This document shows positions 1,803 through 7,713 of a DNA stretch of 64,000 nucleotides, in pieces (the first letter of the stretch is position 1; every line of letters starts with the position of its first letter). This DNA comes from Candidatus Atabeyarchaeum deiterrae. Lineage in GTDB: Archaea > Asgardarchaeota > Atabeyarchaeia > Atabeyarchaeales > Atabeyarchaeaceae. The position numbers were made by a program, and so were the translations under genes. The notes under the pieces were generated by a model. The model did not search any database, was not told the DNA's origin, and worked only from the letters and a program-made list of their open reading frames with translations. The DNA lies in assembly GCA_037310415.1 (NCBI GenBank), contig CP147780.1, forward strand, positions 672,001 to 736,000, written 5' to 3'.

Positions 1803-2152
1803 GGGTTATGAACCCCGACTCTCGACATCCTTTACGCTCACCAGTACCCTTCTCTAGGGAATCCACCCCGTGAATCCGAAAGCGCACCCGGTCAAACTTA
1901 CGACTGCTGCCTCCCGGCTCTCGTCGGATTTGTCTACAACGGTCTTCTCCATCTCCCCTACAGGAGATGTTCGACCACCAGATGCCCTCCGGGGCGAGGC
2001 TTCATGTCCCTCGGAAAAGGCTGTATGAACGCTTGGAATGCCTCAAGCCGGCATTCGGCCCGCCGTATAGGGCGTTTGCGGTACAGGGGAGTTCTAGCCT
2101 ATGGCTGGGGATCAGTCTAGGTCCCTAGCCCCCCGCCTAGGCTCATAACCCC
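1803..2152 (-). ncRNA. ffs: Signal recognition particle (7S) RNA, with predicted 31-nt BHB intron
   Basis: Paired termini GGGTTATGAGCC/GGTTCATAACCC. Alu domain CTAGGC-GGGGGG...TCCCCTGTA...GCCGAA. Helix 6 CATCTCCT-GTAG-GGGAGATG. Helix 8 GAC-GAGA-GCC-GGGA-GGC-AGCA-GTC. TATA element about 25 nt upstream. Confidence 0.93.
2092..2122 (-). other. Predicted BHB (tRNA-type) intron within SRP RNA helix-3 loop
   Basis: GGGGGG[CTAG]GG^A-CCTA...TAGG[CTAG]AA^C-TCCCCT: 4-bp central helix, two 3-nt bulges, both flanking helices paired. Confidence 0.8.
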
Positions 2153-2254: not shown

Positions 2255-2396
2255 GCCGGGGTGTCCTAGAGAGACGAATTCGACCAGTCTCAGGGAACCT
2301 GGTAGGGAGCAGACAAAACCACTCTTGGTAATGGCTCATGCCTGCTAAGTCTGTGCCCGAAAGGGCGCGTGGGTTCAAATCCCACCCCCGGCGCCA
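2255..2396 (+). tRNA. tRNA-Ser(GCT), two introns (2270-2297 at 15/16; 2313-2339 at 29/30), CCA encoded
   Basis: Acceptor GCCGGGG/CCCCGGC, G73, long variable arm GCCC-GAAA-GGGC, T arm GTGGG-TTCAAAT-CCCAC, loop CT-GCT-AA. BHBs [TCCT]AG^A../[AGGG]AA^C and [GAGC]AG^A../[GCTC]AT^G. Confidence 0.92.
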
Positions 2397-2539: not shown

Positions 2540-2980
2540 GTGTCGGGGGCAATCATTGTGGGGTACGAATTCCTTGAACACACTGCTGACGTTATGGTTG
2601 AAGCGCACGGGGGATCCCTTGAGGAAGCATTCTGCTTTGCTGCCAAAGCCATGTTCGATACGATGGTTGACTTGTCGAAAGTTGTGCCGAAATCAAGTGT
2701 GAATGTTGAGGTTTCGGCAAGTGACGTCGAAGGTTTGTTGTACTTGTGGCTCGAGGAACTGCTTTTCAGGTTTGATGTCGAGAGGATGGTTTTCTCAGAA
2801 TTCAGATTCCAATTCATCGAGAAAGAAGATGCCCTGATCGGTAGGGGAATTGCAGAGGGTGAGCCTTACGACCCTAAGAAGCATTTGGGGAAAACCGAGG
2901 TAAAAGCAGTAACATACGAAGAAATGCTGATAGTTAAGAGCGATAGGGGTTTCAAGGTTAGGTTCATTCTCGATATATGA
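2540..2980 (+). CDS. Archease (RtcB RNA ligase cofactor)
   Basis: YEFLEHTADV, EVKAVTY and C-terminal FILDI signature motifs. Confidence 0.95.
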   Translation: MSGAIIVGYEFLEHTADVMVEAHGGSLEEAFCFAAKAMFDTMVDLSKVVPKSSVNVEVSASDVEGLLYLWLEELLFRFDVERMVFSEFRFQFIEKEDALIGRGIAEGEPYDPKKHLGKTEVKAVTYEEMLIVKSDRGFKVRFILDI

Positions 2981-7620: not shown

Positions 7621-7713
7621 GCCGCCGTAGCTCAGTCGGTCAGAGCGCCAGCCTTGTAATGCACCAGACATGACAGTTGGTGGTCGCGAGTTCGACTCTC
7701 GCCGGCGGCTCCA
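7621..7713 (+). tRNA. tRNA-Thr(TGT), canonical 37/38 intron (7659-7674), CCA encoded
   Basis: GCCGCCG/CGGCGGC acceptor, GCTC/GAGC D stem, loop CT-TGT-A^..^A, TTCGACT T loop; TTTAAATATATAT upstream. Confidence 0.95.

Follow-up and report, generated by a model that had tools for sequence, protein, structure and literature searches.

Does the SRP RNA of Atabeyarchaeia-2, an Asgard archaeon from a wetland, carry an intron of the type that is removed from precursor tRNAs, or does the additional sequence in its Alu domain belong to the mature molecule? The question is raised by a gene close to the start of the window, that is, the whole stretch of 64,000 nt of contig CP147780.1 (positions 672,001 to 736,000) that was analysed here. 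In this gene, the apical loop of helix 3 is interrupted by 31 nt. Taken together, the evidence makes it highly likely that these 31 nt are a genuine, spliced intron of the BHB type, in which two bulges flank a short central helix.

The gene was identified with the Rfam model RF01857, which matches the minus strand at 2148-1806 with a score of 131.3 bits (gathering cut-off of 96.5) and is covered in full (model positions 1-317). The model aligns in order and the BHB motif is internal, so that the gene order is collinear and not permuted. Approximately 32 nt remain unplaced in the helix-3 apical loop of the Alu domain, in agreement with the 31-nt interruption described by an initial annotation made from the sequence alone, and the score of 131 bits compares with 160-190 bits for intron-less relatives. 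The terminal helix continues for three pairs beyond the Rfam span (GGG 2151-2149 with CCC 1805-1803), and the gene is therefore assigned to approximately 2151-1803. It is the only copy of the SRP RNA in the Atabeyarchaeia-2 genome, which is complete in a single contig of 2,756,679 bp. The features of the gene are as follows.

1803..2151, minus strand: SRP (7S) RNA gene, from the RF01857 match at 1806-2148 and the terminal-helix extension; approximately 349 nt unspliced
2123..2151, minus strand: proposed exon 1, comprising the RNA 5' end, the 5' strands of helices 2 and 3 and the loop bases CUAGGG
2092..2122, minus strand: proposed intron of 31 nt, with 5' end ACCUAG and 3' end GCUAGAA; unaligned by Rfam and bounded by the BHB
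1803..2091, minus strand: proposed exon 2, comprising the last loop base C2091, the 3' strand of helix 3, helix 4, helix 5 and the S domain
2068..2073, minus strand: helix-4 loop GCCCUA, partner of UAGGGC in the spliced helix-3 loop
2174..2181, minus strand: TATA-like element TTTATATT, with its centre approximately 26 nt before G2151, the proposed 5' end; assigned from sequence only

The spacing rule applied to the TATA-like element is that of archaeal promoters in general. Removal of the 31 nt would reduce the RNA from approximately 349-350 nt to approximately 318-319 nt (343 to 312 nt within the Rfam span); the shortening from 350 to 319 nt given by the initial annotation thus holds when the additional terminal pairs are counted.

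A complete hBHBh' motif is found at the interruption, and its elements, each of which had been named in that annotation and is located where it was placed, form a canonical structure in the helix-3 loop. They are listed below with the tRNA gene of the window that serves as a reference for the cut sites.

2085..2134, minus strand: complete BHB motif (hBHBh'), from direct sequence reading and a strict BHB scan
2134-2129 with 2090-2085, minus strand: outer helix, GGGGGG with UCCCCU; 6 bp, of which four are G-C and two are G-U
2128-2125 with 2097-2094, minus strand: central helix, CUAG with CUAG; 4 bp, all Watson-Crick
2124-2122 and 2093-2091, minus strand: bulges GGA and AAC; 3 nt each, on opposite strands and 4 bp apart
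2121-2118 with 2101-2098, minus strand: inner helix, CCUA with UAGG; 4 bp, enclosing a 16-nt loop
7621..7710, plus strand: tRNA-Thr(UGU), Rfam-confirmed, with a 16-nt intron at the canonical 37/38 site

The motif meets the definition of hBHBh', with two 3-nt bulges around a 4-bp helix and with flanking helices that each exceed the required minimum of 2 bp. In the thermodynamic centroid fold, the central and inner helices are recovered; the minimum free energy of the BHB region is not lower than that of shuffled sequence (z = 0.13), a comparison that is uninformative. The strict scan covered both strands of the window, with helices of 4+4+4 bp, introns of 12-120 nt and dinucleotide shuffles as control. 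It detected no enrichment of strict BHBs in the window, with 19 observed and approximately 22 in the shuffles, and the significance of the motif is therefore positional. In particular, it encloses precisely the stretch left unaligned by the family model, for which the chance rate at one fixed site and length is approximately 1e-6 to 1e-4.

The cut sites were inferred by the rule, already used in the initial annotation, that cleavage follows the second base of each bulge, which places them between 2123 and 2122 and between 2092 and 2091. This rule is consistent with the tRNA-Thr gene at 7621-7710, the exon boundary of which (37/38) is known independently from tRNA structure. The BHB of this tRNA is itself relaxed, with a central helix CUUG/CAUG that contains a U-U mismatch and with a weak inner helix, and is compatible with an endonuclease of broad specificity. 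When the intron and the whole BHB of the SRP RNA were searched against the genome with blastn-short, only chance 10-12-mers were returned, with no trace of recent copying from a tRNA intron.

Removal of 2122-2092 leaves GGGGGG-CUAGGGC-UCCCCU. The resulting loop, CUAGGGC, is identical to the helix-3 loop of intron-less Asgard SRP RNAs (for example, those of genomes G011, G026, G085 and G146), and its bases UAGGGC, which become contiguous only once the 31 nt are removed, are exactly complementary to the helix-4 loop GCCCUA at 2073-2068. Covariation between these two loops is seen in at least 12 other Asgard families or genera, with the pairs UAGGGG/CCCCUA, UAGGCC/GGUCUA, UAGCCG/CGGCUA and UUGCCG/CGGCAA, as well as UUGGGC/GCUCAA, UCGGGG/CCCCGA, UAGCCU/AGGCUA and UAGGCA/UGCCUA. 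Because both loops covary, the Alu loop-loop pairing is real in the phylum. Both the product loop and the pairing proposed from this sequence alone are therefore supported by the relatives. A sequence profile was built with nhmmer from 50 intron-less Asgard SRP RNAs. Against it, the SRP RNA of this genome scores 103.9 bits with the intron and 122.8 bits without, and the gain is 18-19 bits in each of the three Atabeyarchaeia genomes. Exon 1 already contains five of the six pairing bases (UAGGG); any block of the Alu fold in the precursor, which remains an inference, would therefore stem from the CUAG/CUAG helix in which they are held.

A different feature of this region is present in the Asgard families f7, f10, f18 and f19, in which helices 3 and 4 are separated by an additional hairpin of 15-25 nt instead of the usual UGUAAC turn. 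The hairpin varies in sequence while its stem remains paired (loci L014, L015, L013, L023, L026 and L045-L049, read in the first ~70 nt of each SRP RNA). No BHB bulges were seen in these hairpins, and they have the appearance of a genuine additional helix, not of an intron.

The three Atabeyarchaeia genomes compared here, those of Atabeyarchaeia-2 (G000), Atabeyarchaeia-1 (G001, CP147779.1) and the LC30 MAG (G002), all have an insertion at the same site of the SRP RNA, with lengths of 31, 30 and 30 nt, respectively. The exons that flank it are identical across approximately 20 nt upstream and 60 nt downstream, exon 1 of G001 and G002 being the same as that of G000 from position 9 to the intron. 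The bulges and the CUAG/CUAG central helix are likewise identical in all three. The interior of the intron has diverged, with approximately half of its positions different and one indel. The inner helix is nevertheless still paired (CCUA/UAGG compared with CUCA/UGGG), with a compensatory change in one pair (U-A to C-G) and a one-sided change in another (C-G to U-G), and measures 4 bp in G000 and 6 bp in both G001 and G002. All 42 of the 42 pair cells of the BHB in the three genomes are standard pairs. The survey of relatives proposed in the initial annotation thus yields an intron in all three genomes of the class with its BHB geometry kept; the covariation that it also proposed to examine is statistically weak, and with three related genomes does not reach significance (156 of 500 shuffles were equally good).

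A second group with an insertion at this place was identified in the wider survey of 151 Asgard genomes. Seventeen sequences of family f12, the Hermodarchaeota, were examined closely, and all 17 contain 31 nt in the same helix-3 loop. They can be read with a central helix GGCU/GGCU(C) that has G-U ends, bulges AGA and AAG, and an inner helix AGCCC/GGGCU. The predicted cuts, between CUAG and A at the 5' side and between AA and GGC at the 3' side, would again give the product loop CUAGGGC, and removal of the insertion increases the profile score by 19 bits. The two groups therefore agree in the loop, the length of 31 nt and the predicted product, whereas the splice site lies 2 nt further upstream in the Hermodarchaeota and the sequences are unrelated. 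The 3' bulge of the Hermodarchaeota is, moreover, slightly irregular, being effectively 4 nt or else followed by a G-G mismatch.

Two sequence variants, read in the first 90 nt of the SRP RNA, are consistent with the Hermodarchaeota splice junction as placed here. In G109 (locus L040) exon 2 begins with A, and the resulting UAGAGC is perfectly complementary to the loop 4 sequence GCUCUA. In G117 (locus L042) loop 3 has U in place of C and loop 4 has A in place of G, a matching pair of changes, and GGU pairs with ACUCUA. An alternative register for the Hermodarchaeota, with a central helix CUAG/CUGG, was rejected, as its 11-nt product loop is unfit for pairing with loop 4. Whether the introns of the Atabeyarchaeia and the Hermodarchaeota have a shared or a separate origin is not resolved by the SRP RNA tree, which is weak.

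Parts of this SRP RNA are found in metatranscriptomes of three runs from three studies (wetland, sediment and mine drainage), and contigs of four runs were aligned to 1760-2200 of the window. Contigs from RNA libraries cover 1854-2099, on the exon 2 side. The X1 contig matches the window at 100% identity over 1889-2069, and the X3 contig does so over 1909-2069. These two contigs (depth of 366 for X1), which come from different studies, both end at 2069 in the helix-4 loop GCCCUA without a loose end; the shared stop may reflect a branch point of the assembly, a modified base at which reverse transcription halts, or coincidence.

The contigs that bear on splicing were compared with the junction expected from the BHB cuts.

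Expected spliced junction, the exon join predicted by the BHB cuts: GGGGGGCUAGGG joined to CUCCCCUG

Two contigs lack the 31 nt. The X2 contig, from an RT-PCR RNA-Seq library of sediment, is identical to the window at 167 of 170 positions (98%) over 1930-2099, and past 2099 it runs into CCCCGCCTAGGCTCA, which is the plus-strand sequence of 2131-2145 in exon 1, with exactly 31 nt absent. The X6 contig has the same 31-nt gap, with the loose end CCCCGCCTAG. It carries 21 of the 23 differences that separate the LC30 genome from that of Atabeyarchaeia-2 and is therefore attributed to a second Atabeyarchaeia lineage, the genome of which has the intron. The hexamer CTAGCC occurs at both 2094-2099 and 2125-2130. 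The alignments are therefore as expected for a contig without exactly 31 nt, and the position of the junction is ambiguous by 2 nt.

This evidence consists of two assembled contigs, with depths of 2.7 and 33, and not of reads, and the joints were seen as loose ends that were not scored. The letters at 2093-2092, which would be GG in the BHB product and AA after a repeat-mediated event, are not shown in the contig output; GG is favoured only by the three mismatches of X2, all of which are near the ends of the piece. The exact cuts are accordingly inferred to within 2 nt. The X6 run is labelled 'RNA? (probably DNA)', although its contig begins with an Illumina adapter and has a length of only 290 nt; if it is DNA, it would instead show an intron-less allele. 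No contig of the four runs covers 2100-2130, so that the precursor is unseen, and this gap was not counted as evidence. A search for the joined form in JGI metagenomes (241 million records) gave three chance GC-rich matches and no SRP gene, which is only a weak negative, as the set may lack records close to this genome. On the transcript check that the initial annotation had suggested, two contigs from RNA-labelled libraries lack the 31 nt, but they are not reads, one of them is possibly DNA, and the junction retains its 2-nt ambiguity.

Splicing at the BHB has to be weighed against other explanations of these data. The locus might be a decaying, non-functional copy of the SRP RNA in which the BHB is a chance match, given that approximately 20 strict BHBs per window arise by chance. 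This can be set aside almost entirely, since the complete genome has no other SRP RNA gene, conservation of the exons is strong, the motif is present in three genomes, and the locus is covered by contigs in four runs, three of which are RNA-Seq libraries, with a depth of up to 419 in X1. The 31 nt might instead be a lineage-specific expansion hairpin that is kept in the mature RNA, with DNA or intron-less strains as the source of the gapped contigs. Expansion segments, too, look like a conserved hairpin whose interior varies, several Asgard families have the additional non-BHB hairpin between helices 3 and 4, X6 is perhaps a DNA library, and no precursor has been seen. However, an expansion hairpin offers no reason for two 3-nt bulges exactly 4 bp apart, or for a split in the six bases that pair with loop 4. 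Intron-less strains are disfavoured by the presence of the insertion in all three genomes of the class and by the failure to find a DNA contig of the joined form in the JGI metagenomes. The X2 library, moreover, is an RT-PCR RNA-Seq library, and its contig is 98% identical to this genome. We consider a retained hairpin improbable.

It is more improbable still that the 31 nt are removed, but at positions other than those of the BHB. Excision between the CUAG repeats would leave the loop CUAGAAC and so forfeit two of the six pairs with GCCCUA, a pairing that the relatives retain. Another nuclease, or reverse-transcriptase template switching at the 6-nt repeat, would be further routes; direct repeats are a known source of reverse-transcription artefacts, and the junction cannot be placed uniquely in the contig alignments because CTAGCC is present on either side. 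On the other hand, the same event is recorded in two studies and in two lineages with different intron interiors, and the three mismatches of X2 are unlisted and so lie near the ends, which fits GG at 2093-2092. The residual doubt about the spliced BHB intron rests mostly on a retained hairpin together with intron-less strains, and on excision at other positions.

The enzymes required for such splicing are encoded in the genome, although their action on the SRP RNA is inferred. There are two EndA paralogues, each of a single domain, at genome positions 215557-215811 (minus strand) and 625628-625888 (plus strand), within longer ORFs. One is an ORF of 238 aa with the Tyr/His/Lys-type motifs of a catalytic subunit, and the other, of 198 aa, appears from its sequence to be without the His. 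The pair fits the heterotetrameric alpha/beta type, and the endonuclease is probably of this two-subunit form, as predicted from the two ORFs. Heterotetrameric alpha/beta EndA accepts relaxed BHBs (PMC4731332, PMC5829648); the motif in the SRP RNA is a canonical one. The ligase RtcB is also encoded, together with a single gene for its activator, archease (PF01951, 151 bits; genome positions 674564-674977, corresponding to 2564-2977 of the window). Given the intron and the contigs that lack exactly its 31 nt, the SRP RNA very probably needs the tRNA-splicing enzymes, an inference made without an enzyme assay.

In the proposed pathway, a precursor would be transcribed from approximately 2151 to approximately 1803 on the minus strand. 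The CUAG of exon 1 would pair with the CUAG at the 3' end of the intron to form the 4-bp central helix, flanked by the bulges GGA and AAC, with helix 3 on the outside. The tRNA splicing endonuclease would cut between 2123 and 2122 and between 2092 and 2091, after the second base of each bulge, and RtcB with archease would then join the exons, the intron presumably being circularised. The mature RNA of approximately 319 nt would present the loop CUAGGGC, the bases UAGGGC of which would pair with the helix-4 loop GCCCUA.

The archease gene lies 400 nt from the SRP RNA gene, on the 3' side of an intron-bearing tRNA-Ser gene.

2255..2396, plus strand: putative tRNA-Ser(GCU) with encoded CCA, divergent from the SRP RNA gene; approximately 142 nt, by sequence reading
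2558..2980, plus strand: archease gene, 140 aa, 3' of tRNA-Ser; PF01951

From its length of approximately 142 nt, the tRNA-Ser(GCU) gene is taken to bear introns of approximately 55-60 nt in total, and as read here it would be another substrate of the same splicing system. It was missed by ARAGORN, and by Rfam at the gathering score. ARAGORN found no tRNA in the window, not even the one confirmed by Rfam, and is unsuited to the intron-bearing genes of this genome. The SRP, tRNA-Ser and archease arrangement is kept in both G001 and G002. In the Hermodarchaeota, a tRNA-Ser gene immediately precedes the SRP RNA gene, but here the two are in tandem and not divergent, and no archease gene was found beside the SRP gene in these loci. 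Linkage of 7S RNA and tRNA-Ser is said to be old in archaea, having reportedly been described in Methanothermus fervidus by Haas et al. in 1990.

SRP RNA is found in all organisms and is required for protein targeting. If it is spliced as proposed here, these Asgard archaea would rely on the RtcB ligase and the tRNA splicing endonuclease for the targeting of their proteins. There are also practical consequences, as intron-bearing SRP genes score low in covariance-model annotation, and analyses of Asgard SRP RNAs that rely on size or on the loops would be misled. A more far-reaching idea, which we regard as unlikely, is that the helix-3 apical loop is a repeatedly used or selected intron site: unrelated 31-nt BHB introns of the Atabeyarchaeia and the Hermodarchaeota occur 2 nt apart in one 7-nt loop and are absent from the families that group with them in the weak tree. 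On this view the intron may have a function. By pairing with the CUAG of loop 3, it would keep loops 3 and 4 from pairing before cleavage and ligation. The tRNA-splicing machinery, with the archease gene adjoining, would then serve as a checkpoint or folding aid of SRP assembly in the closest archaeal relatives of eukaryotes.

What is new here is the host: the intron itself is of the standard archaeal kind, and no published example in this RNA came to light. The initial annotation knew of no linear SRP RNA with an internal spliced intron. This fits the searchable full-text literature, in which no BHB intron inside a collinear SRP RNA gene was found, subscription journals being mostly outside its reach. 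BHB introns are reportedly present in rRNA genes and in the cbf5 mRNA of Crenarchaeota, in work attributed to Watanabe (in 2002) and Yokobori (in 2009). Those introns resemble the present one as non-tRNA substrates of the same endonuclease and ligase pathway, but their host molecules are other than SRP RNA.

Within the same genomes, introns have been described in 92-95% of the tRNA genes of these Atabeyarchaeia, many of them at non-canonical sites (Valentin-Alvarado et al. 2024, PMC11291895), a picture that the present case extends to a non-tRNA housekeeping RNA. The pre-tRNA introns of Atabeyarchaeia and Freyarchaeia (PMC11291895; bioRxiv 10.64898/2026.10.13.758758) share with the SRP RNA intron the 3-nt bulges, the 4-bp helix, the size range, the presumed enzymes and the genome, and differ in that the host is a tRNA. 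Both of these reports treat tRNA genes only and leave SRP RNA unmentioned.

The closest comparison is with the circularly permuted SRP RNA of Thermoproteus tenax and T. uzoniensis (Plagens et al. 2015, eLife, PMC4731332). There too, maturation of the SRP RNA needs cleavage of a BHB by the tRNA splicing endonuclease, followed by ligation (PMC4731332). In Thermoproteus, however, the gene is permuted, the BHB is formed by leader and trailer near a loop of the S domain, and the product is circular (PMC4731332), whereas the gene of Atabeyarchaeia-2 is collinear, its 31-nt intron is internal to the Alu helix-3 loop, and its product should be linear. The lineages are also different, with Thermoproteus belonging to the Thermoproteota and the present case to the Asgard archaea. 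The authors of the Thermoproteus study speculate on an ancestor with 'simple BHB introns' (PMC4731332), and a simple BHB intron of this kind is the state seen in Atabeyarchaeia-2.
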